NCBI GenBank assembly: GCA_964518475.1
Contig: CAZFGR010000037.1
Location: 1-12,553 of the forward strand
DNA: 12,553 nucleotides
Reading direction: 5' to 3'
Origin: an uncultured Nitrososphaerota archaeon
GTDB lineage: Archaea; Asgardarchaeota; Njordarchaeia; Njordarchaeales; Njordarchaeaceae
Shown piece by piece: positions 323 to 11,539 of this stretch. The notes below the pieces were generated by a model that did not search any database, was not told the DNA's origin, and was given only the letters and a program-made list of their open reading frames with translations. The position numbers were made by a program, and so were the translations under genes. Positions within the stretch are counted from its first letter, which is position 1. Each line of letters starts with the position of its first letter.

Positions 323-1522
323 CTATTTGTTTAAATAGCCTAATTTAGTTGGCAGAATTGCGAAAACTTTTGCAAGAGTTGTTAACTCTTCCACCGTTAT
401 ATATTCATCTGCCATATGACAACGTTTCTCGTCACCCATGCTGAAGACTGGTGCAGGTATACCACTTAATAGAAAGAGTTTAGCAACAGTTATCCCTCCG
501 ATTCCGAAGCATCTTGGCTTATAACCCGCTACATCATTTATAGTATCAGATAATAATTTCACTATTGGTTCATTCTCCGACATCGATGTAGCTGGTATCG
601 ACCTTGAAACCTCAACAACCACATTTATCTCTGGATCATTTTCCTCTGTCCTTACTTTTTCAATAAAGTTCTCCAGGTCTCTTTTTACTGTTTCTTGATT
701 TTGCCCTGGGACTATTCTGATATCTAGCTGGGCCTCACAGGAAGGTGGAACCACATTTACTGCCACTCCACCTTTTATTGTCCCTACATTCAATGTCGGT
801 TTCCCTAATAGTGGATCTGGTTTATATGTGAATTCAAATTCATCAAGTCTTGCCAAGATTTTTGCCAATTTCACGATGGCATTTATTCCCTGTTCAGGCA
901 TACTTCCATGTGCTTGTTTGCCTCTAGAAATTAACTTTGTTCCAACAGCACCCTTTTCAGCTATTTCAATATTTCCATTAGTTGCCTCTGCTACAAGAAC
1001 ATAGTCTGGATTTATGAGTTTCTCTTCTAGGAGATATCTAACTCCATACATGCTTCCACGTTCTTCATCAGCGACACCAGCTATCGATATAGTTCCATCA
1101 AATTTTACATCCAATTCTTTAATAGCTCTCGCAGCTATCAGAGCAGCTGCTAATGGACCTTTGTCATCAACTGTTCCTCTTCCATATATTTTATTATCTT
1201 TAATCGTCGTTTTGAAGGGGGGATAACTCCAGCCTTCTCCCTCAGGCACAACATCTAAATGTGCAATTATCATTAAATGAGGAGAACCACTACCAATCTT
1301 CCCGATTATATTTGTTCTTCCCTCAGCTTTTTCATAAATTTCATATGGAATATCTAGCTTATTGAATTCTTCTTCAACTATTTTTGCAGCTTCTATTTCA
1401 TTTCCAGGTGGATTCACTGTTTTTGCCCTTATTAATCTATCTAGAAGATCTATCAAATCTTTCTGATGTTCTTCGACATAACTTAATAACTCTTCTTTGT
1501 TAGTTGTTGAAGAACATCCCAT
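323..1522 (-). CDS. M20-family metallopeptidase/amidohydrolase (ArgE/DapE-like deacylase)
   Basis: Motifs AHLDVVP, IYGRGTVDDKG, ADEE, AE, QAHGS, GG-x-AVNVVP, DIR and C-terminal H-x-ADE. The start is placed at ATG 1522 (GAGGGG upstream) rather than TTG 1537. The substrate cannot be determined. Confidence 0.93.
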   Translation of the reverse strand: MGCSSTTNKEELLSYVEEHQKDLIDLLDRLIRAKTVNPPGNEIEAAKIVEEEFNKLDIPYEIYEKAEGRTNIIGKIGSGSPHLMIIAHLDVVPEGEGWSYPPFKTTIKDNKIYGRGTVDDKGPLAAALIAARAIKELDVKFDGTISIAGVADEERGSMYGVRYLLEEKLINPDYVLVAEATNGNIEIAEKGAVGTKLISRGKQAHGSMPEQGINAIVKLAKILARLDEFEFTYKPDPLLGKPTLNVGTIKGGVAVNVVPPSCEAQLDIRIVPGQNQETVKRDLENFIEKVRTEENDPEINVVVEVSRSIPATSMSENEPIVKLLSDTINDVAGYKPRCFGIGGITVAKLFLLSGIPAPVFSMGDEKRCHMADEYITVEELTTLAKVFAILPTKLGYLNK

Positions 1523-1549
1523 TACCAATCCCCTCAAAATTAGAGGCAG

Positions 1550-1578: not shown

Positions 1579-1597
1579 ATTCTCTTCAATCTTTCAA

Positions 1598-1615
1598 TGA
1601 AAAATTTTTTAAAAA
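1598..1615 (+). promoter_or_regulatory. BRE/TATA-like promoter for the DUF917 gene
   Basis: TGAAAAA followed by TTTTTTAAAA (1605-1614), about 25 nt upstream of ATG 1639, consistent with a leaderless archaeal mRNA. Confidence 0.5.
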
Positions 1616-1638
1616 GGAACCCCTTTCTTAACGATGAT

Positions 1639-2778
1639 ATGACGAAAGAGAAGATTCTCTCTGATCAGGATATTGAGGACTTTCTGATAGGTGCCGAGAT
1701 CCTGGGTACTGGTGGTGGCGGTGGACGAAGATGGGCTGAATCTATGTTAAAAATAATGAGGGAAAAGGGAAAGAAAATTAGGATCATAGATCCAAAAGAT
1801 GTACCTGAAGATGCAGTTATTGTTGGTGCTGCAGGAGTTGGAGGAGGAGTGGAGGAAGAGATCAGGAAGAAAATACAGCAGAAATTCGGTGCAATGCCAA
1901 GTTTGGAGAGTTTTATGGAGCGAGCATCATTAGCTGAAAAGTTAATGGTCGGATACCTCGGTGAAGAGATATATGGATATCTACCTTTTGAATTAGGATG
2001 TGGAAACACGATACTTCCAGCAGTTATGGCAGCATTAGGAGATAAACCAGTTATAGATGGAGATTGCAATGGACGAGCAGTTCCAGAAGTGGAGTTATGC
2101 ACGCTAAATGTGGTAGGCCTACCCTTTACTCCAATAGCCCTCGTGACACCCTGGGGAGAGACAATGATCATTAAGAAGGTATTTGATTACAGCAGAGCTG
2201 AGGACTTCTGTAGGGCGATAGCGGTGATTTCAGGTGGAAGTAGCTTAATTGTAAGTGCGCCTATTAGAGGCAAGGTACTCCCCGATTCCATAGTTCTAAA
2301 CACTATATCCAAATCCATAAAATTGGGGAGAGCTATAAGAGAAGCAAGAGATAAGGGAAAGGACCCCATCGAGGCAGCGCTTCAGGCGTTGGATGATGCC
2401 TTTCTCCTCTTCAGGGGGAAGGTCACCCACTTCGAGAGGGAGGAGCGCGGAGGCTTCATGTGGGGAGAGCATAGATATGAGGGAACAGATGAATTCAAGG
2501 GTAGAAAATTCCGTATCTGGTATAAGAATGAACATTTAATATCATGGCTCGATGATCAACCATATGTAACATGCCCAGATCTCCTCTGCGTCTTAGATGC
2601 AAAGACGGGGCAGGGACTCTCAAATTGGGGCGAAGACTTCTACGAGGGAAGAGAGGTTGCGATCATAGGCGTGAAGGCAGATAGACTCTGGCGTACGGAG
2701 AGAGGACTCTCCATCTTAAATCCAAAGCACTTCGGCTTCGATATAGAGTACAAACCCATTGAAACCCTGGTGAAGTAA
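1639..2778 (+). CDS. DUF917-family protein (S-methyl thiohydantoin desulfurase-like)
   Basis: Hallmark motifs GA-x-ILGTGGGG, E-x-G-x-GN, P-x-IDGD-x-NGRAVPE, KNE-x-L and PDL-x-CVLD. The start is probably ATG 1639; the ORF-track ATG 1597 overlaps the promoter. Confidence 0.9.
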   Translation: MTKEKILSDQDIEDFLIGAEILGTGGGGGRRWAESMLKIMREKGKKIRIIDPKDVPEDAVIVGAAGVGGGVEEEIRKKIQQKFGAMPSLESFMERASLAEKLMVGYLGEEIYGYLPFELGCGNTILPAVMAALGDKPVIDGDCNGRAVPEVELCTLNVVGLPFTPIALVTPWGETMIIKKVFDYSRAEDFCRAIAVISGGSSLIVSAPIRGKVLPDSIVLNTISKSIKLGRAIREARDKGKDPIEAALQALDDAFLLFRGKVTHFEREERGGFMWGEHRYEGTDEFKGRKFRIWYKNEHLISWLDDQPYVTCPDLLCVLDAKTGQGLSNWGEDFYEGREVAIIGVKADRLWRTERGLSILNPKHFGFDIEYKPIETLVK

Positions 2779-2846: not shown

Positions 2847-3992
2847 TTATTCCTCCAGGATCTCCACATTTGCTCTTGGTACGATAACTTTACCTATATC
2901 TAACTCTACTTCCACTACTCGTACCATCGACTCAGTTTCTATTTTTTGTAAATGCACCGGTAGACTCACAACAGTACCAATTTTTCCAAAGTATGGTTCA
3001 CGAATTATTCTCACTAACGTTCCTGGTTTCATGCCTTTTGATAACTCTATTTCTCTATCTGAAACTTCAGAGATGTATTTCTCATTTGGTATTATAATTT
3101 CAGGTCTCATTACTCCTGCCCTAATTTGTGTCGCCCCATTTATGGCAGCTTCATATCCATCAAATTCCTTTAATATATTGAAAACTCTTTTTGACATTGG
3201 CATTTTTCCAAATCCCTCTGTAATTATCAAAGTTGTATTTATTTTTTCATGACCTGTAATTGCAACACCTATTTCATACCCCAGGAAATCAGTCACAGTT
3301 TGACCTTTTATACCTCCAACCACTATCCCCCTAACGCCTAATTTCTCGGCCTTTTTCAAAGCGTCTAAAGTTACAAGGCTCCCTCCAACGATTATTTTTC
3401 CTTTGTGTTCATTTTTAATCATGTCTTCCTCTAATATATCATCTGGGGAATCAACTAACACACAGATTTCTCCGTGCTTTTCTCCTCCTATGCCGAAGAT
3501 TCCCTGAATGAAGGCCCCAAAACATTCTATTTCTACTCCCCTCTTTGGGATAATTTTTTTAACTTCACCTGGGATATATGCATTTATTTCTATTGGATGT
3601 GGCATCTCTCTTATAATTATTTGTCCAGTTATATCAGACACTGATTCAATTACCCCTTTAATAGGTGAACGAACATATTTTTTTATTAAGCCCCAAAATG
3701 GCGTATATTTAGCTATTATTTCATTTTCTTCCACTATATCCCCAACTTTTTTTACCATTAATTTTGGAAGCACCTCTGTTGGAACGCCCAATATCTCATA
3801 TGCCTTTATTATATATGGTTTGCCTAGAATTGATGATCTTGCTACTATCGTTTCAAAATTAACTTTATCTCCAACTTTTACAGTTACCTCCCCATCGATT
3901 GGAAGTAGTCTCGTTTTTCTAATCCTCATTCCTTTTTTAACCTTTAATCCAGGAGTATATGCATGTGTTTCTTTAGTTGTTTTCTCACTCAT
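2847..3992 (-). CDS. Conserved hypothetical protein, partner of the GlmL-like ATPase: barrel-sandwich hybrid repeats, swivelling beta/beta/alpha-like domain and C-terminal KOW motif
   Basis: Two hybrid-motif-like segments (GEVTVKVGDKV...IVAR and LMVKKVGDIVEENEIIAK...VRSPIKGVIESV), a central GKIIVGG...GVRGIVVGG...TLIITEGFG...GYEAAING region, and a C-terminal KPGTLVRIIREPYFGKIGTV KOW. ATG 3992 overlaps the upstream stop (ATGAGTGA) and has the RBS GAGGGTGA. Confidence 0.8.
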   Translation of the reverse strand: MSEKTTKETHAYTPGLKVKKGMRIRKTRLLPIDGEVTVKVGDKVNFETIVARSSILGKPYIIKAYEILGVPTEVLPKLMVKKVGDIVEENEIIAKYTPFWGLIKKYVRSPIKGVIESVSDITGQIIIREMPHPIEINAYIPGEVKKIIPKRGVEIECFGAFIQGIFGIGGEKHGEICVLVDSPDDILEEDMIKNEHKGKIIVGGSLVTLDALKKAEKLGVRGIVVGGIKGQTVTDFLGYEIGVAITGHEKINTTLIITEGFGKMPMSKRVFNILKEFDGYEAAINGATQIRAGVMRPEIIIPNEKYISEVSDREIELSKGMKPGTLVRIIREPYFGKIGTVVSLPVHLQKIETESMVRVVEVELDIGKVIVPRANVEILEE

Positions 3993-5889
3993 TAATCTCA
4001 CCCTCCCATTTTTCAATTATCTCTTTAGGATAGGCATCTAAATTACTAAACCATTTTAATAGAGTTCTCTTTCTTTCATCTTCTTCAGAAGGTAAAGTGA
4101 GAGGCCTTCCTCTTGCATCTATAAGTATACCGACGACTCCACCTTCCACAGTGGCCTCTCTAGATTTTCCAGGACCATTACCAACGTCTAATCCACCTCT
4201 TGGATCGATGAAAACTTTAGCTTTTTGTCTTTCTTCAAGAGATATTCGAATGATGTCGCCGTATTCTACCTCTTTCTCTATTGTTTCTCCATTGGGCATC
4301 TCAATCCTTACATTCAATGCTGGCTCTGTTTTATTCAATGTTCCAGCTGGAGCTATCACAGTTCCAAGTCTCACTAAGCAATCTTTATCAAATATATTCC
4401 AAGCTATTTCTGGAAATGCCTTGGATAAAACCCCTAAGTGTGGCATCATAAATACGCTATCCTGATAAATCTTTGTTACACCCTCTGGTTGGAAGGCGTC
4501 AGTTAAAATCAACATTGATTGTACTCTTCTTGGTGCATGCGATAATAATCCACCAGTTCCAGCGATTATTCCTATTTTCATCATTTCTATGTAAGTTTCC
4601 TTTAAACTGTATTCCAATAGATCTCCTATTGTTCTATCTCTTCTTAATGCACCCTTTAATCTAGTCGCTATAGTCTTATGGTGAATGAATCCTAATCTTA
4701 TGGCTTCTCTTGCAACAGCATGTTCAACTACCAGAGATTCTATTGTTTGTGGAATTGTTGTTGGTCGGATCATCTTATTTCTTAACATATCAATTAATTC
4801 CTCTTTCTCTATGTAAAATGGAACCCAGCGAATTATATTATCTATGCCAGCTTCCTTCATTACATTACATATACTGTAACTCATTCCTAGATTTGCACTT
4901 ACACTTCTCACGAATTTACCGTCAAAGACAGAGTATATATTTGTTGTAGCTCCTCCAAGACCAACCCCTAAGAGATTTTTCTTTTCCATGTATGCAATTA
5001 ATTGCATTGCCATTCCTTCTCCAGCCGGAGTGGGAAGAATATCTAGATCTGTCCAACTCATTAGTTCCGGATAACCTGGAGCATGAGACATCACATGTTC
5101 CATGAAGAGTTCGTGAATGGCATTTCTAGCTGGTTCGATGTTTTCTATCTCTAAAACTGGTCTTATATTATCGACTATTGATAATGCAAATTTATCTCCC
5201 ATTAATTTCTTTATTTCTGGACGAACATCTTTATTACCAGCATAGACTATAGGTAGTTTATAATCTTCACCTAATCTAGGTTTTGGATCTGATGCTGTGA
5301 TCAATTCAGCGATCTGCATGACCAAGGTTTTTGTACCTCCATCGGTTCCACCGGCTAACAATATCATATCTGGTCGTAGATGACGTATCTTCTCTATCTT
5401 CTCATAATCTGGAACTCCATCATCGACAGCTATGACATCCATGACGATGGCGCCGGCTCCAAGGGCGGCCCTATTGGCGCTCTCCGCCGTCATCGTCTTG
5501 ATTACTCCGGCCACCATCATCTGAAGCCCTCCACCAGCGCTGCTGGTGGAGCAGTAAAAGTCGACTCCCCGCCCCTTTGAATGAGGCTTAATAATTTTGC
5601 CATCTGGAGACAGAATCTGTAGGCCGGTTAGATCCTCTATCTCTCTTATAGCGTTTCTTACACCTAAAATTACGTTTTCATACGGCGCTTCCACAGTTGT
5701 CGGGGCTTCTCCACTTATAACGTATCTCCATTCACCTTTAATCTTCTTAAATAATCTAGCCTTGGTGGTTGTGCTCCCAACATCCGTCACTAGGATATAT
5801 TCCATCTCCTCCTCAGATTTAGGAAGCCTACGTATCGCCTTCTCATCTCTTTTCCAAATCATAGTTTTAATGGGTTTTGACAAGTTCAT
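3985..5889 (-). CDS. GlmL/MutL-like (glutamate mutase L family) ASKHA/actin-fold ATPase, long form
   Basis: Phosphate-1 DVGSTTTK, family motifs APTTVE, SSAGGGL, A-x-RAALGAGA, PDMILLAGGTDGG, YAGN, NIRPVLE, PTP, phosphate-2 GLGGATTN, RSVSANLGMSYS and adenosine motif GTGGLL. It has an extra C-terminal ~120 aa ending in GG-x-VGILIDARGRPL. The exact start is uncertain (5889 or a downstream ATG). Not the DNA-repair MutL. Confidence 0.85.
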   Translation of the reverse strand: MNLSKPIKTMIWKRDEKAIRRLPKSEEEMEYILVTDVGSTTTKARLFKKIKGEWRYVISGEAPTTVEAPYENVILGVRNAIREIEDLTGLQILSPDGKIIKPHSKGRGVDFYCSTSSAGGGLQMMVAGVIKTMTAESANRAALGAGAIVMDVIAVDDGVPDYEKIEKIRHLRPDMILLAGGTDGGTKTLVMQIAELITASDPKPRLGEDYKLPIVYAGNKDVRPEIKKLMGDKFALSIVDNIRPVLEIENIEPARNAIHELFMEHVMSHAPGYPELMSWTDLDILPTPAGEGMAMQLIAYMEKKNLLGVGLGGATTNIYSVFDGKFVRSVSANLGMSYSICNVMKEAGIDNIIRWVPFYIEKEELIDMLRNKMIRPTTIPQTIESLVVEHAVAREAIRLGFIHHKTIATRLKGALRRDRTIGDLLEYSLKETYIEMMKIGIIAGTGGLLSHAPRRVQSMLILTDAFQPEGVTKIYQDSVFMMPHLGVLSKAFPEIAWNIFDKDCLVRLGTVIAPAGTLNKTEPALNVRIEMPNGETIEKEVEYGDIIRISLEERQKAKVFIDPRGGLDVGNGPGKSREATVEGGVVGILIDARGRPLTLPSEEDERKRTLLKWFSNLDAYPKEIIEKWEGEINE

Positions 5890-6025: not shown

Positions 6026-6529
6026 ATGGATATCCAACCAATTATAAAAATCCATGAAAAACACCGGGAGATAATGGTTTTCATTTATTCCATCGCAATT
6101 ATTATTTTTACATTTTTTATCGCGAGAGGGATCTCCTCTAGAAGCTATTTGAGAGCTGATCTGACATGTTACACGGTGTTGCATGGATATACGGCATATG
6201 ATCCGTTATTAGTAGGTGAAAATGTGAGTTGGATTGGTTCATGGGGACGTGAGGGAAGTATTGTTATTGAAGGTTGGATATATAATTTGGGTCCTGAGGA
6301 TGTAAATGTGACTCTTCATCTATGGATTTATGATGGAACTAAAAATGGAGGGGGAATAGGTTGCAATCAATCAGAATACTGGCAAAGTAATTATATACCG
6401 ATAGGAGTCGTACCAAAACATGGTAAAAAATGGATTCACATAGAAAAACGTTATAATCCATTTGACCCCACGACGGCTTCCTTCGATTATGAACTCATTG
6501 CAAAGCCCCTTTTTTATAGTGGCCCTTAA
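6026..6529 (+). CDS. Hypothetical membrane-anchored protein with a predicted beta-rich extracellular domain
   Basis: 167-aa ORF with one hydrophobic N-terminal helix (IMVFIYSIAIIIFTFFIA), then alternating beta-strand-like segments (SIVIEGWIYNLG, VNVTLHLWIYDG). Its stop overlaps the convergent gene stop (TTAA 6526-6529). Confidence 0.65.
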   Translation: MDIQPIIKIHEKHREIMVFIYSIAIIIFTFFIARGISSRSYLRADLTCYTVLHGYTAYDPLLVGENVSWIGSWGREGSIVIEGWIYNLGPEDVNVTLHLWIYDGTKNGGGIGCNQSEYWQSNYIPIGVVPKHGKKWIHIEKRYNPFDPTTASFDYELIAKPLFYSGP

Positions 6530-6873
6530 TTCGAGCTCCCTTTAAAGAAATTGAAAAATACTCTACGAAGGAAACCCGATTTCGATTTGGTTTTTTGTTC
6601 TTTCATTTTTTTCTCTTTATGTAGTTTTTTCAATTTCTTAATTAAAGCTTCTATATTCTCAATCTTTCCAAAGGTATCAACAAATAAATATCCATATTCA
6701 TCTAATAATGGAAGAAATGGAGCTAAATAAAAATAAGCTAATTCTCCCCCAATCATTGATAGGGGTTTTATTGTTTGAAGAATGAAGATAGCCAAATCTT
6801 CCATGTCTAAGTCTGATATTTTTTGAGCGACTTTATCTATTAATTCTCTTTCCTCATCAATTGACATCTTCAT
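6526..6873 (-). CDS. Small conserved hypothetical helical protein (KPLS-x-IG motif)
   Basis: 115-aa ORF with LIDKVAQKI...AIFILQTIKPLSMIGGELAYFYLAPFL and a basic C-tail. Preceded by a CCAAAAA-TTTTTTATTATA promoter-like element. Confidence 0.75.
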   Translation of the reverse strand: MKMSIDEERELIDKVAQKISDLDMEDLAIFILQTIKPLSMIGGELAYFYLAPFLPLLDEYGYLFVDTFGKIENIEALIKKLKKLHKEKKMKEQKTKSKSGFLRRVFFNFFKGSSN

Positions 6874-6887
6874 AAATTAAGGAGAAT

Positions 6888-6908
6888 GGTATAATAAAAA
6901 ATTTTTGG
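6888..6908 (-). promoter_or_regulatory. Oligo-T tract that could serve as terminator of the membrane operon and/or BRE/TATA for the 115-aa gene
   Basis: Minus strand CCAAAAATTTTTTTATTATAC, just downstream of stop 6917 and about 15-30 nt upstream of ATG 6873. Confidence 0.35.
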
Positions 6909-6916
6909 ATCTCTTT

Positions 6917-7549
6917 TTATAGACCTAGCCATAGCTTGATCAATCGATATAGCGAGCTTACCGCTAATCCTGATAGTTGCATTATGGCACTCCCTACTGA
7001 AAGACCGAAGTATATTAGGAAGATATATTTTCCTATGGTTCTTAGATATTCTGCTGGTTTGCTCGCTGGACTACGTACAAATACCGTGAAAAGTAGGTAG
7101 AATACTGCGATAGGGGTAAATATCACTTTTATTAGGTAGCCTATCTGATCGGTTAATGGTGGTGTGAATATTAGTGCAGCTTCAGATATCACCGCCTTAA
7201 CGTTTCCAATGATGTCTGTCATCATTAGAGCTCTCATAGATATACCGGTGCCAACCCCGATCATAACAGCTATTGGGAAGGAAGCTACCCAAGCATATTT
7301 TCTCCATGCTACAAATAGCGACATTATTCCCAGTATTAGTGGGATGATTAGTATTGGTTTCTGGCCTGTAAATAATGGTAGGAAACGGCTTTTTAATGTG
7401 AAATATCCAGTTACAACTGAATGCCCTATTACAGTGCCTGCATAAGTGTATACTCCTATTCTGAATAATGGATTGTCACCATATAGTAGTGAATAGGAAC
7501 AGATTGTCAGAAGCGCTGATAACCAGATCCAGGGATCTGTCGAGATCAT
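6917..7549 (-). CDS. Conserved hypothetical integral membrane protein (~5-6 TM; W-x-x-ALLT...S-x-LYGDNPLFR motif)
   Basis: 210 aa, strongly hydrophobic throughout; ATGA overlap with the upstream gene at 7546-7549. Confidence 0.85.
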   Translation of the reverse strand: MISTDPWIWLSALLTICSYSLLYGDNPLFRIGVYTYAGTVIGHSVVTGYFTLKSRFLPLFTGQKPILIIPLILGIMSLFVAWRKYAWVASFPIAVMIGVGTGISMRALMMTDIIGNVKAVISEAALIFTPPLTDQIGYLIKVIFTPIAVFYLLFTVFVRSPASKPAEYLRTIGKYIFLIYFGLSVGSAIMQLSGLAVSSLYRLIKLWLGL

Positions 7550-8376
7550 TCCTCTTCCTCCCCCAACCTAGTTAACATCGTGATGTTTCCTAATATTACG
7601 AAGATGACGAAGGCGATGACTAGGAAACTGTAGGCGTTCATCGCTGCGTATCCTAATCCCTTTATTCCTACCAATTTTTCGTATTGAGCGCCTCCAAGGA
7701 ATCCAAGGGTCATGAAGACCTTGCCTGGATACATCGCCATGTATGGGGCATAGGAGGCATAGGCTGCAGCCTGGGCGAAGTAAACGCTGGGAATTCCCCT
7801 CTCTGAAGTTACGTATCTCACTATCATTGGGAAGGCCCAGTGGATGCAGATCCATAGCGAGATGTCTTTATAGCTATGGAGATCGCGCATGAGGGGGAGT
7901 TCATCGAGAGGGGTTCCATATACATCGGTGGCTACCGCGGAATGCACATCCGTTAGGAAGGCGACGAGGGCAGCATCCATCCCCGGCATGTAGGGAAGCT
8001 GCACATAGTCTCTACCATATTTCCAGGGTCCACCATACTTCTCATCAACTCTCGCCATGTCGATACAGTATTTATGCATTTGCACCGCCTCGACGGATAG
8101 TGGAACGAAGACCACCCTTAGATGGTTACGTGCCATCTGCTTTAGGCAGGCTATCATGGAGGCTGATGACTCAAGGTCGAAGGCGAATACATAGGCGCCT
8201 CCCACTGCTACTATGCTTCCTTCAGGTAGATTTTCTATCATGTTATAAACATCTAATGTTGCTTTACTCATAGGAATCGGTATTTCGATGGGGTGTATTA
8301 TCGCTACTGTAAATATCGCTAATAAAATAGCCCATATATATTGAGACTTTAATTCAGGTATCCTCATCGCCATCAC
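7546..8376 (-). CDS. Conserved hypothetical membrane protein with a central soluble alpha/beta domain
   Basis: 276 aa; N- and C-terminal TM helices flank ~200 soluble residues (IENLPEGSIV, KYGRDYVQLPY, GGAQYEKLVG). ATGA overlaps on both sides. Confidence 0.85.
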   Translation of the reverse strand: MMAMRIPELKSQYIWAILLAIFTVAIIHPIEIPIPMSKATLDVYNMIENLPEGSIVAVGGAYVFAFDLESSASMIACLKQMARNHLRVVFVPLSVEAVQMHKYCIDMARVDEKYGGPWKYGRDYVQLPYMPGMDAALVAFLTDVHSAVATDVYGTPLDELPLMRDLHSYKDISLWICIHWAFPMIVRYVTSERGIPSVYFAQAAAYASYAPYMAMYPGKVFMTLGFLGGAQYEKLVGIKGLGYAAMNAYSFLVIAFVIFVILGNITMLTRLGEEEE

Positions 8377-9014
8377 ACCTCCGTAGCTCTTAGAGCACCT
8401 TTCTCCAATCCTAATAATATCCGTATCCCTAGAACTACCCCTCCTACTCCTCCTGTGATCAGTAGTGCTCTACTACCTGCTGATGCAGGATAGTTTAAGA
8501 ACCAGAATACTATCTTATCGGCCGCTGGAAAAGTAGCGGATACTATTGGAGCATTGCATATCGCTATTAGTAGGGTACAGCAGGCGAATATTGCAGTCCT
8601 TAAAGTCCTCATCCTGAATAGTCGATAACATGCTGAGATCATGAAGAATACCAGTTGGCCAAGGATTGCTATATGTAACGTGATTTTTGTACATAGATAT
8701 GCCTTCTGATAAATGTCTGAATATAGCCCAACTTTCAGGCCGAAGATTATCCATACAACTATCAGTATCGCTGCATATAGGTGATATTGCCAATACTTTT
8801 CTCTATTCATAATGCTGCGAATATATCTTGAGTATACTGATAGCAATCCTACGAACAGAGTGAATGTGGCTATATTCATGTTCCATATCTGAAGCTCATT
8901 TGCTATTACATCTGCCTCTGGAGATACAAAGTACCAGCTAATTAGTACTGATAACATTCCGATCAATATTAGTATTCTTGTGAGGTATAACCTTATATAT
9001 ACTACGGCGGACAT
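8373..9014 (-). CDS. Conserved hypothetical integral membrane protein (~5-6 TM)
   Basis: 213 aa, hydrophobic, C-terminal AGSRALLITGGVGGVVLGIRILLGLE. The start lies 1 nt after the upstream stop. Confidence 0.85.
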   Translation of the reverse strand: MSAVVYIRLYLTRILILIGMLSVLISWYFVSPEADVIANELQIWNMNIATFTLFVGLLSVYSRYIRSIMNREKYWQYHLYAAILIVVWIIFGLKVGLYSDIYQKAYLCTKITLHIAILGQLVFFMISACYRLFRMRTLRTAIFACCTLLIAICNAPIVSATFPAADKIVFWFLNYPASAGSRALLITGGVGGVVLGIRILLGLEKGALRATEV

Positions 9015-9015
9015 T

Positions 9016-9810
9016 TTACATCCCCAATAGATTTAATATCAGGTTTGACCCCGCTGCAGATAATATTGCTCCAACGATCATTAAGACTAGCAATATTAGT
9101 TTTATCCAATCTTGTGCAGCTAAGGTTGCGATAGCATATTTATCTCTTGTAATGGAAGCCGCAGCGGCGTAGAGCTCTTCTCCTACTAGGAAATAGTCAC
9201 AGAAAACTGTCATCATATCCATGCTTCCGAGGGTTCCTCCAATTTGGATTGCTCCCACCCTCGCTCCTGTTTCGCCATCGACGATCACGTCGAATAGGAA
9301 ATAGCCGATAAAACAGATCATACCCGGTTTATGTGCTAGGATCTGCCCCGCGGCCCCCACGGCATAGGCGAATTGATCGCCTCCGAACCATTCAACATAT
9401 TTACCTGGAGCATAGAGTTCTGGTTTACCTGCAGCGGTGTAAGCGCTGCCTATAACTGCCTCGGCGGCGGTGATTACCGCTGAGTTGCTGGCGCTTGTGA
9501 TCGTTGGAACCCCTATCTCCGCTCCCCTTTGCGCCAGCTCTCCTAATACAGTTAATCCAGCGATTGTTTGTGGATTACCTAGATCACTTATTCCAGGTAA
9601 CACCATCATGGGTCGACCCATCTCCGCGCATCTTCCTACTCCTTCATACATCGCCTCTAATGCCTCAATTGGTCTGATCTCCCAGACCTTACCCTTTTTT
9701 GCTAGAGATGATGCTATATAGGTTAATATAGCTACCAGAATCAACAGGAATAGTTGAAATGCTCTTCCCTCTTTTATTATCATACCAGCCATGACAAAGT
9801 TAGTTGACAT
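9016..9810 (-). CDS. DUF6754-like membrane protein
   Basis: TM-soluble-TM layout with IRPI-x-AL...VGRCAEMGRP, QFAYA, ETG-x-RVGAIQIGGT, CDYFLVGEELYAA and LAAQD motifs, recalled as DUF6754. The start is probably ATG 9810 (AGGGG RBS; a TATA at 9855-9862 lies inside the longer ORF-track call that starts at 9882). Confidence 0.75.
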   Translation of the reverse strand: MSTNFVMAGMIIKEGRAFQLFLLILVAILTYIASSLAKKGKVWEIRPIEALEAMYEGVGRCAEMGRPMMVLPGISDLGNPQTIAGLTVLGELAQRGAEIGVPTITSASNSAVITAAEAVIGSAYTAAGKPELYAPGKYVEWFGGDQFAYAVGAAGQILAHKPGMICFIGYFLFDVIVDGETGARVGAIQIGGTLGSMDMMTVFCDYFLVGEELYAAAASITRDKYAIATLAAQDWIKLILLVLMIVGAILSAAGSNLILNLLGM

Positions 9811-9854
9811 TTTAATTCCCCTTTTCCTAGTAATAACCTCTTTTGGTAATTCAT

Positions 9855-9870
9855 ATTTATAGTTTATTCC
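9855..9870 (-). promoter_or_regulatory. BRE/TATA promoter of the four-gene membrane operon
   Basis: Minus strand GGAATAAA-CTATAAAT, about 45 nt upstream of ATG 9810. Confidence 0.45.
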
Positions 9871-9939
9871 ATTTTCCATCAATTATATGTAAAACAAACG
9901 GAAACCTAAAATAAATTAAAATAAAATTTGTTTAATGAA

Positions 9940-10168: not shown

Positions 10169-11539
10169 ATGGTGGACGTTCTTTTGATTTCCCCTCCGTT
10201 TAAGGGCCTTTTAAGGGAGCCTATTGGTCTTTATTATCTCGCAGGGGTGCTCGAGGAGGAGGATATTTCTGTTAAAATAATGGATTTTAATGTGGAACAA
10301 CCGAGCAGATCATATTTTCACAATAAGATTAGGAAACTTGATCCCAAAATTGTTGGTGTAACTTCATATACATTTAATTTTTCAGCTGCAAAGAAGATAG
10401 TTAAAGAGATCAAGAAAGTCAAACGAGATTGCATTATTGTTATGGGTGGGGTTCATGTTTCTTCACTTCCAAAAGAGACTTTCGAAAGCGTTCACGAATT
10501 AGATTTCATCGTCATCGGGGAGGGAGAATTTACTTTTTTGGAATTATGTAGAAGTATAATTAATTGTGAAGATGATGCATTTAATATTGAAGGGGTAGCA
10601 TATAAAGATAATGAGAGAGTGATAATTAATCCACCAAGAAGATTAATTAAAAATTTAGATGATTTACCTATGCCGAACAGAGAACTACTTCCCTTCAACA
10701 AATATCCAGTCGCTTCAGTTCAGACTTCTAGAGGTTGCCCTTATAATTGTATATTTTGTAACATTAACAAATTTTATGGAAATAGAATAAGATTTAGAGA
10801 TCCCATTGAGGTTGTAAAAGAATGTGAATATATTGTTAAAAGATATAATAAGGATAAGATTTTCTTTTTTGGAGATGCCTTTACCTTTAAATCAGATTGG
10901 GTTGAAACATTTTGCGATGAGATTGTTCGTCGCAAACTTAAATTTAAGTGGGGTTGTGAAACAAGAGTTGACAATGTAAATTATAAACTTCTTAAGAAGA
11001 TGAGGAGAGCAGGATGTATTGAAATACAATATGGCATAGAATATGGAGATGAAGAAATTCTTAAGATATTGGGTAAAAATATATCTTTAGAAGATGTTCA
11101 TAATGCAGTTAGATGGGCTAAAAAGACGAATATGTTTGTTGGGGGATTTGTTATATTTAATGTCCCATATGAAAATGAGGAAACTATGGAGAAAACATTT
11201 AGATTACTTCAAAGAGTTCCTGTTGACGCTATAGAAATAAATCTGTTAACTCCTTATCCAGGTACAATCCTTTGGAAAAATCCTGAGATATTCAACATGA
11301 GGATCATTAATTATGATTTTGATTATTACACAACTAAGAAATATGTTATGGAGAATTTGAATTTCCCAAGAGAAAAATTTGTTCCAGCATTTAAGAGACT
11401 TCTCAAAAGATTGAATCTGATACCTATGCCGGGCCATGAGCCAGAGATTTTCAATTTTTTGAAGAGAGATATCAAAATAAAAGTATGGAAAGAGGAGGAA
11501 AGTAGAATTAAACACTTTTTAAAGATTTTGAAAGGATGA
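10169..11539 (+). CDS. B12-binding-domain radical SAM protein (class B methyltransferase-like)
   Basis: N-terminal cobalamin-binding region (PIGLYYLA, VGVT, MGGVH, VIGEGE), SRGCPYNCIFC CxxxCxxC, ETRVD, GIE-x-G and TPYPGT. RBS-like GTGGGG before the ATG. Confidence 0.92.
   Translation: MVDVLLISPPFKGLLREPIGLYYLAGVLEEEDISVKIMDFNVEQPSRSYFHNKIRKLDPKIVGVTSYTFNFSAAKKIVKEIKKVKRDCIIVMGGVHVSSLPKETFESVHELDFIVIGEGEFTFLELCRSIINCEDDAFNIEGVAYKDNERVIINPPRRLIKNLDDLPMPNRELLPFNKYPVASVQTSRGCPYNCIFCNINKFYGNRIRFRDPIEVVKECEYIVKRYNKDKIFFFGDAFTFKSDWVETFCDEIVRRKLKFKWGCETRVDNVNYKLLKKMRRAGCIEIQYGIEYGDEEILKILGKNISLEDVHNAVRWAKKTNMFVGGFVIFNVPYENEETMEKTFRLLQRVPVDAIEINLLTPYPGTILWKNPEIFNMRIINYDFDYYTTKKYVMENLNFPREKFVPAFKRLLKRLNLIPMPGHEPEIFNFLKRDIKIKVWKEEESRIKHFLKILKG

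Follow-up and report, generated by a model that had tools for sequence, protein, structure and literature searches.

We analyzed a stretch of 12,553 nucleotides (nt), contig CAZFGR010000037.1 of the archaeal bin GCA_964518475.1 (the window), around a gene at 3985..5889 on the minus strand. Its open reading frame, Pfam match, and structural model identify the product as a long-form PF13941 (MutL/GlmL-like) nucleotide-binding protein of the actin/Hsp70 fold with 634 amino acids (aa), referred to here as the ATPase. An alternative start, Met10 at coordinate 5862, is used by a 625-aa database cluster. Directly downstream lies the gene of a 381-aa partner protein (2847..3992, minus strand), whose ATG overlaps the ATPase stop codon in ATGAGTGA, and five tightly packed genes on the same strand (6526..9882) encode one small protein and four membrane proteins. 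The ATPase, its partner, the small protein, and the four membrane proteins together make up the actual unit, a cluster of seven genes. A previous reading of this DNA from its letters alone (the sequence-only reading) had taken the ATPase for an orphan, which is refuted by the translationally coupled partner and the membrane gene cluster.

Other parts of that reading agree with the translation. It had described an intact phosphate-1 loop, an altered second loop, and a beta-rich C-terminal extension reaching to IDARGRPL, and DVGSTTTK, VGLGGATTNIYS, and IDARGRPL are all present in the translated gene. The phosphate-1 loop (5761..5784, minus strand) is canonical in the alignment, and the phosphate-2 loop reads GVGLGGATTNIYS (4930..4968, minus strand), with both Asp of xDxGGATTD replaced (G310 and N317). 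This state is called G..N below, and the state with both Asp is called D..D. In the ATPase model (predicted local distance difference test, pLDDT, 92.6; predicted template modeling score, pTM, 0.91), the actin-fold core spans residues 28 to 495 and holds a flavodoxin-like alpha/beta insert at about residues 119 to 270 (5080..5535, minus strand), assigned from fold matches and carrying the family motifs SSAGGGL and GGTDGG. The C-terminal extension, residues 505 to 634 (3988..4377, minus strand), consists of a beta-rich domain with strands at 505 to 591, as claimed, and two helices at 603 to 633. IDARGRPL is kept throughout the long-form family, and 90% or more of the 95 aligned rows have D591 and R593. 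The C-terminal 130 residues matched 0 Pfam families at E values up to 1, and a sequence search of solved structures gave nothing meaningful for the whole ATPase, the family profiles, or the C-terminal part alone.

How close is this protein to a true GlmL? PF13941 (MutL) matches residues 32 to 504 with 386.9 bits (gathering cutoff, 27 bits; model positions 1 to 450). None of the NCBIfam cutoffs is reached: the ATPase scores 210.9 bits against 475 for the GlmL model NF040745, 207 against 600 for the Or-4 model NF040744, and 149.2 against 204 for the glmL_fam model, and reference GlmLs score 448 to 646 bits with NF040745. The ATPase and GlmL/MutL have ~25 to 30% identity and share DxGSTxTK, SSAxGGL, GGTDGG, PTP, and GGATT in addition to the Pfam family. 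They differ in length (634 against ~460 aa), in the extra C-terminal domain and inserts of the ATPase, and in its G..N for D..D and SAN for EGD, the latter preceded by a ~15-residue deletion; the window gene does not lie between glmS and glmE and has the partner and membrane neighbors instead. Or-4 of D-ornithine degradation is also in the same Pfam family, and its Acetoanaerobium copy is 32% identical to the ATPase, but Or-4 keeps D..D and no oraE, oraS, or ortB was found near the gene in the window or in the bin. The ATPase is a divergent PF13941 member and not a GlmL, and the database name "glutamate mutase L" is a misnomer for this gene. More than 8000 matching genes bear this name or "methylaspartate mutase," implying a B12 fermentation pathway that those genomes lack.

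Reference short forms were found by tblastn against a plasmid collection (10 records). Seven reference loci show the gene order glmS-glmL-glmE-methylaspartate ammonia-lyase, annotated as such except for the Fusobacterium locus, which was recognized by re-scoring, and one shows ortB-oraE-Or-4-orr. We aligned six of these GlmLs (the Escherichia coli copy was excluded) and one Or-4 with five long forms including the window ATPase. xDxGGATTD is found in all seven mutase- or aminomutase-linked short forms and VGLGGATTN in all five long forms, and KR(T/S)VEGDLGM of the short forms is replaced by FVRSVSANLGM. D(I/V)GGATTD, which the sequence-only reading had taken as the GlmL motif, holds as a reference, and the variant loop, whose frequent occurrence in mutase-linked GlmLs would have spoken against that reading, occurs in none of the seven examined. 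Among the matches listed for the window ATPase, all 120 close homologs (66 to 100% identity) carry VGLGGATTN(V/I)YS, and those with a source name are all labeled Bathyarchaeia or Bathyarchaeota. The G..N loop is also found in all 82 ATPase copies across the 80 best related loci from species genomes, which we used as the G..N neighborhood set. The conservation in both sets indicates that the change of the loop is not due to chance.

The wider family was sampled by an exhaustive search of cluster representatives, which gave 3025 clusters (50% identity) at E values up to 0.001 and 738 at E values up to 1e-30. Among the best 150 of these representatives, 113 have a D..D loop, 1 has G..N (a 238-aa fragment), 1 has D..N, and 35 have a loop outside the search pattern. 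The first Asp position of 95 aligned long forms is Gly in all 25 close-clade rows; of the other 70, 68 have Asp there, 2 have Asn, and none has Gly, with both Asp kept in 48. Around a bacterial-type long form (P0296 and relatives), 80 metagenome loci contain 80 copies, all of them D..D. The phylogeny proposed earlier as a check was built by FastTree from 120 rows with Shimodaira-Hasegawa-like supports, the program warning of long branches and uneven composition. It sets the 7 short forms apart from the long forms at 99% support and unites 27 G..N rows in one clade (support 100) nested among D..D long forms. Since the G..N rows form a single nested clade and the bacterial members are D..D, the altered loop is not a hallmark of the long-form family but a derived state of one lineage labeled Bathyarchaeia. 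The earlier proposal of a distinct subfamily therefore survives in part. The missed NCBIfam cutoffs, the separation of short and long forms, the family's own partner and membrane neighbors, and the lack of a mutase in the bin speak for it, whereas the altered loop, proposed as its mark, belongs to the nested clade only and is absent from the D..D majority of representatives and all bacterial-type loci.

The assignment of this contig to its host needs care. The bin's class is represented by 13 further genomes, none of them with the ATPase gene, and among 400 genomes sampled from the phylum, counting the bin itself, there are only two other matches, both weak. No DNA syntenic with any part of the contig is present in six genomes of the same genus, and every part of it is syntenic with Bathyarchaeia-labeled contigs (L010, L012, and L013). 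Based on these observations, the contig may be mis-binned or transferred; its GC content and tetranucleotide use are not deviant within the bin. In the class holding the Bathyarchaeota chromosome G400, the gene is found in 65 of 201 evenly drawn genomes, often in 2 to 5 copies, and the G..N clade spans 57 to 80% identity across that class. Metagenome-assembled genomes (MAGs) labeled Patescibacteria, Krumholzibacteriaceae, and Anaerolineaceae (L026, L054, L028, and L058) also hold G..N copies, 67 to 68% identical to the window ATPase; these look like mis-binned archaeal contigs rather than bacterial genes.

Of 69 related loci with 700 nt or more of flanking sequence, all but L034 and L074 (67 loci) have the partner gene immediately downstream of the ATPase gene and in the same orientation; among the bacterial-type D..D loci with enough flank, it is adjacent in 46 of 61. 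Natural fusions are frequent among the longer relatives of the partner, 49 of 50 of which carry PF13941; 48 of these fusions are 920 to 1022 aa long, which corresponds to the two proteins joined. The one other longer relative, P0249, is a partner fused to DUF6754, and a 995-aa PF13941 cluster in the ESM Atlas matches the partner with a template modeling (TM) score of 0.85. Residues 159 to 303 of the partner have no Pfam match. The model of the partner (pLDDT 89.3, pTM 0.77), together with fold matches, suggests three domains: a barrel-sandwich hybrid at about residues 22 to 157 (biotin carboxyl carrier protein 2d5d_A and NqrA 4u9o_A, both Z 7.7); a swivelling beta/beta/alpha domain at about residues 159 to 303 (enzyme I of the phosphotransferase system [PTS] 2wqd_A, Z 9.8, root mean square deviation [rmsd] 2.5 over 105 aligned residues; rifampin phosphotransferase 5hv1_A, Z 9.2; RraA, Z 8.6); and a KOW-like barrel at about residues 318 to 381 (NusG and Spt5, Z ~7). 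Z scores of 7 to 8 are commonly met on the fold tool's own scale, so that only the swivel match stands out among these domains.

Over 3 runs, the complex model of ATPase and partner has a median interaction score from predicted aligned errors (ipSAE) of 0.80, whereas the best of 3 controls scores 0.00. Among solved complexes, 116 of 157 attain this mark, as do 2 of 215 mismatched pairs, counts that are only rough because self-made alignments were used, one of them containing natural fusions. The runs share at least 95% of contacts, with partner pLDDT of at least 85. The modeled interface includes ATPase residues 39 (phosphate-1), 314 (phosphate-2), 333 (SAN motif), 363 to 386, and 451 to 454 and partner residues 165 to 166, 229 to 231, 240 to 244, 260 to 262, 288 to 294, 330 to 335, and 371 to 377. 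These partner residues coincide with its most conserved motifs (QGIFGIGGE, TEGFG, TQIRAG, and PRAN), which in the model sit on the conserved NKMIRPTTIP segment of the ATPase and touch residues of the phosphate loops. The ATPase and partner are co-translated and are predicted to form a tight complex.

The five remaining cluster genes, all on the minus strand, overlap by 4 nt at 7546-7549 and at 8373-8376. They encode the 115-aa small protein (6526..6873), a polytopic membrane protein of 210 aa (6917..7549), a 276-aa membrane protein with a soluble middle part (7546..8376), a second polytopic membrane protein of 213 aa (8373..9014), and a 288-aa DUF6754 (PF20539) membrane protein (9016..9882). 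Within the 80 G..N loci, they are found, in varying arrangements, in 49, 35, 49, 43, and 47 loci, respectively, and the 210-aa, 276-aa, and DUF6754 proteins are found in 32, 30, and 44 of the 80 D..D loci. Three membrane genes are present in 28 of 36 G..N loci of at least 12 kb. For DUF6754, the ESM Atlas returned only its own family. The bacterial long forms (records labeled Neomarinimicrobiota and Planctomycetota and metagenomes) resemble the window ATPase in length, C-terminal domain, SAN motif, partner, and DUF6754-type neighbors, with ~40 to 51% identity, but have xDIGGATTD and Val291; their partners keep D229, D230, and R206, and many of these long forms are fused to the partner. Since D..D loci share the partner and DUF6754-type neighbors, D..D and G..N ATPases are parts of one system. 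The family marks a conserved ATPase-partner-membrane system in many uncultured bacterial phyla. A literature search, with subscription journals outside its coverage, found no description of this system.

Is a B12-dependent mutase the client of this ATPase? No such link was detected. MutL/GlmL is called a chaperone for glutamate mutase reactivation in a figure legend (PMC4682846). The window contains no mutase genes, in agreement with the sequence-only reading, and no mutase gene adjoins the ATPase in 160 loci (80 G..N and 80 D..D) probed with the window's proteins. The genome search suggested in that reading was run on the bin (2.33 Mb, 91% complete, 5.8% contamination), which has one PF13941 gene. 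It gave 0 matches for GlmE (PF06368), the methylmalonyl-CoA mutase (MCM) families, OraE (NF040743), and KamD, of which the KamD result says little, as control genomes were equally silent. All 4 B12-binding proteins of the bin are B12-radical S-adenosylmethionine (SAM) enzymes. GlmE is also missing from all 4 Bathyarchaeota chromosomes that carry the ATPase gene, and the Bathyarchaeota chromosome G401 has five ATPase copies and no match to MCM (PF01642) or GlmE (PF06368).

In fold, the core of the ATPase is nearest to FtsA (1e4f_T, Z 14.8, rmsd 3.8, 245 aligned residues; 7q6d_A, Z 14.3), followed by the aroyl-CoA reductase ATPase subunit (Z 13.6), PilM 5eou_A and a dehydratase activator (both Z 12.7), and DdrA 2d0o_A and ParM (both Z 11.3); Hsp70s are found by Foldseek at probability 1.0. 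The insert at residues 119 to 270 matches flavodoxin-like and REC chains (Z ~10 to 10.8). With respect to the superfamily of acetate and sugar kinases, Hsp70, and actin (ASKHA), the two-lobed actin fold and the phosphate-1 DxG(S/T) loop are present, but the phosphate-2 Asp (DxGG) is not. FtsA and PilM are membrane-tethered actin-fold proteins that serve as cytoplasmic platforms on membrane proteins. The FtsA 1C domain is replaced here by the flavodoxin-like insert, there is no sequence family match to FtsA or PilM, and the window ATPase gives no sign of filaments. The top Foldseek ranks are held by acetone carboxylase beta (5svc_B, E value 8.7e-11), acetophenone carboxylase, and N-methylhydantoinase (up to 3.7e-10), but with TM scores of only ~0.3, and the window has no hydantoinase B-type subunit. 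Pfam describes PF13941 as similar to the hydantoinase A/PF01968 branch; PF01968 itself has no match in the ATPase at E values up to 0.01.

The change of the phosphate-2 loop is accompanied by changes elsewhere in both proteins. In the ATPase, 23 positions separate the G..N clade from the D..D forms, including V291E and E139N; all 82 G..N copies have Glu at residue 291, where all 80 D..D copies have Val. In the partner, we compared 48 proteins encoded beside D..D ATPases with 68 beside G..N ATPases, giving the commonest residues for the latter. Position 229 is D in all 48 of the former and R (33), K (10), E (7), N (4), or I (4) in the latter; position 230 is D in all 48 and H (33), D (22), or G (4); position 206 is R in all 48 and L (42), M (9), or R (8); and position 263 is D (39) or E (8) and K (28), E (20), or R (10). 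Thr208 is kept on both sides (64 of 68 and 41 of 48). The ATPase and the partner interface changed together in the G..N lineage. Such lineage-specific rewiring with matched partner changes offers a natural experiment, D..D against G..N, on the need for hydrolysis.

A second paralogue was found in the Bathyarchaeota class described above, where about 26 of the 65 genomes list a further match at 39 to 44% identity. We read it in four loci (L173, 4828-6570, minus strand; L174, 4709-6448, plus strand; L175, 4312-6042, plus strand; L176, 4430-6142, minus strand), where it is ~40 to 43% identical to the window ATPase. Its phosphate-2 loop is canonical, VDVGGATTDVYS, and its phosphate-1 loop is degenerate, with DIDDWLTR, DIDDSLTR, NIDNLLTK, or DIDNNRTK instead of DxGSTTTK. 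It has its own partner, which matches only residues 15 to 302 of the window partner and apparently lacks the KOW domain. Two paralogues with oppositely degenerate loops thus seem to coexist in the same archaea.

What does the ATPase do? On balance, we favor the reading that an undescribed machine associated with the membrane has this ATPase as its nucleotide-binding subunit and that in this lineage it is probably a slow or nonhydrolyzing switch. The ATPase would be the cytoplasmic nucleotide-binding subunit of a system that further comprises the obligate three-domain partner, four membrane proteins, and the small protein. In bacteria, the ATPase with the catalytic xDxGGATTD would probably use ATP hydrolysis to shift the partner against the membrane proteins. 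In the G..N lineage, both Asp were replaced (G310 and N317) alongside V291E and E139N in the ATPase and, in the partner, D229 to R/K, D230 to H, R206 to L, and D263 to K/E/R. In Hsp70/actin-fold ATPases, the catalytic cations are held in place by the Asp residues of the phosphate-2 loop, whose loss usually slows hydrolysis strongly without abolishing binding. Because both Asp are lost and the phosphate-1 and GTGG loops are both intact in the G..N lineage, we infer that this version would still bind nucleotide and that its hydrolysis would be slow or nil. Its role would then be to switch or scaffold the membrane module in a nucleotide-dependent way and not to reactivate a B12 mutase. The sequence-only reading had left a motor, a switch, or a kinase in play; the loss of both Asp favors the switch in this lineage.

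Several points weigh against this reading. Retained nucleotide binding and lost hydrolysis are deduced from motifs, and the strong conservation of the G..N clade would be expected of any function that was kept, including catalysis. The covariation between ATPase and partner is one evolutionary event in a comparison of two lineages, which makes it a coincidence in evolution and not proof of physical coupling. The membrane genes are missing from 8 of the 36 G..N loci of at least 12 kb, and none was detected within ~5 kb of the second-paralogue pairs in the four loci. As to the mutase question, the absence from the bin is weak evidence since the contig may not belong to it, and MCM-type genes are present in 3 of the 4 ATPase-carrying Bathyarchaeota chromosomes, where a B12 enzyme could be the client.

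A possible, though clearly less probable, explanation is that the G..N form remains an active ATPase or kinase whose catalytic residues have moved elsewhere. In Hsp70 and actin-fold ATPases, the phosphate-2 Asp takes part in coordinating Mg/K; here, Glu291 and partner Lys/Arg229 would stand in for the cation bound by the lost Asp residues, and the partner swivel would carry a phosphoryl group or pass it on to the membrane module, in the manner of the swivels of PTS enzyme I and rifampin phosphotransferase. The complete Glu/Val division at residue 291 is in keeping with this idea, as are the strong conservation of the clade and partner position 229, which is always D beside D..D, mostly R/K beside G..N, and lies within the modeled interface with ATPase residues 39, 314, and 333. 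Partner residues 159 to 303 also have the same fold as the phospho-His swivel domains, but here the swivel is flanked by the barrel-sandwich and KOW domains, and at the place of the enzyme I phospho-His there is Thr208 and no conserved His (by sequence reading, not structural alignment). Moreover, the covariation goes back to a single event in one lineage.

A more specific proposal, which we regard as improbable, is that the ATPase and the partner swivel form one composite catalytic center energizing a new kind of membrane machine, whose acidic cluster was swapped in the Bathyarchaeia-labeled lineage. In bacteria, ATPase D310 and D317 and partner D229 and D230 would bind one or more cations, with R206 nearby. 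In the Bathyarchaeia-labeled lineage, R/K229 of the partner might act as a protein-borne cation and E291 of the ATPase as a relocated carboxylate. If true, evolution would have exchanged a bound metal ion for a side chain across a subunit interface.

It is very unlikely that the ATPase, like GlmL, reactivates or chaperones an enzyme of the cobalamin or radical type, whether a methylmalonyl-CoA-type mutase or a B12-radical SAM enzyme such as that encoded in the window (10169..11539, plus strand; one of the four in the bin). PF13941 membership, the MCM-type genes of the Bathyarchaeota chromosomes, and the presence of the B12-radical SAM gene can be cited for it. So can DdrA, the diol dehydratase reactivase, which unites an actin-fold ATPase with a swivel domain; this is a likeness of fold only, to the ATPase by 2d0o_A as given above and to the partner by 1nbw_A at rank 49 with probability 0.51. 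No diol/glycerol dehydratase gene lies in the window, and no genome-wide dehydratase search was made. The 160 probed loci without an adjoining mutase gene, the five copies in G401 without a PF01642 or PF06368 match, the membrane proteins as constant neighbors, and scores far under the GlmL and Or-4 cutoffs all argue against a reactivase. The link to the B12-radical SAM gene was rejected, as a homolog is found in just 4 of the 80 G..N loci.

A hydantoinase/oxoprolinase-type enzyme acting in cyclic-amide degradation with the DUF917 and M20 gene products that flank the pair would fit the top Foldseek matches and the weak PF01968 matches of relatives, but it can hardly be maintained, because DUF917 is found in 2 and M20 in 5 of the 80 G..N loci and neither was detected in the 80 D..D loci, the DUF917 gene is convergent with the pair, and the B-type subunit is lacking in the window.

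The two flanking genes in question are a DUF917/S-methyl-thiohydantoin-desulfurase-like gene far below the NCBIfam cutoffs (1597..2778, plus strand), which is not co-oriented with the ATPase-partner pair, and a gene for an M20 ArgE/DapE-type deacylase, an amidohydrolase (323..1537, minus strand); a pathway link between them and the cluster was rejected on their counts in related loci. A role in anti-phage defense was likewise considered and dropped, with 0 PADLOC anti-phage families among 8 cluster proteins. A search for RNA evidence covering 2847..5889 listed no source. Between the two halves of the cluster, on the opposite strand, lies an open reading frame of 167 aa with an N-terminal hydrophobic segment (6026..6529, plus strand), homologs of which are found in 2 of 80 loci (L010 and L013).

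Copy number and architecture of the ATPase vary further among relatives. Two ATPase-partner pairs stand tail to tail within one locus in both L069 and L079, and several MAGs hold 2 to 5 ATPase copies (L030, L060, L063, and L071 all come from one MAG). Three proteins, P0301 (1332 aa), P0297 (1304 aa), and P0399 (1187 aa), have a long N-terminal part before the long-form PF13941 domain, which may reflect real fusions or gene-calling read-throughs; this part contains an M1 peptidase domain in P0301 and a TSP3 repeat in P0297.

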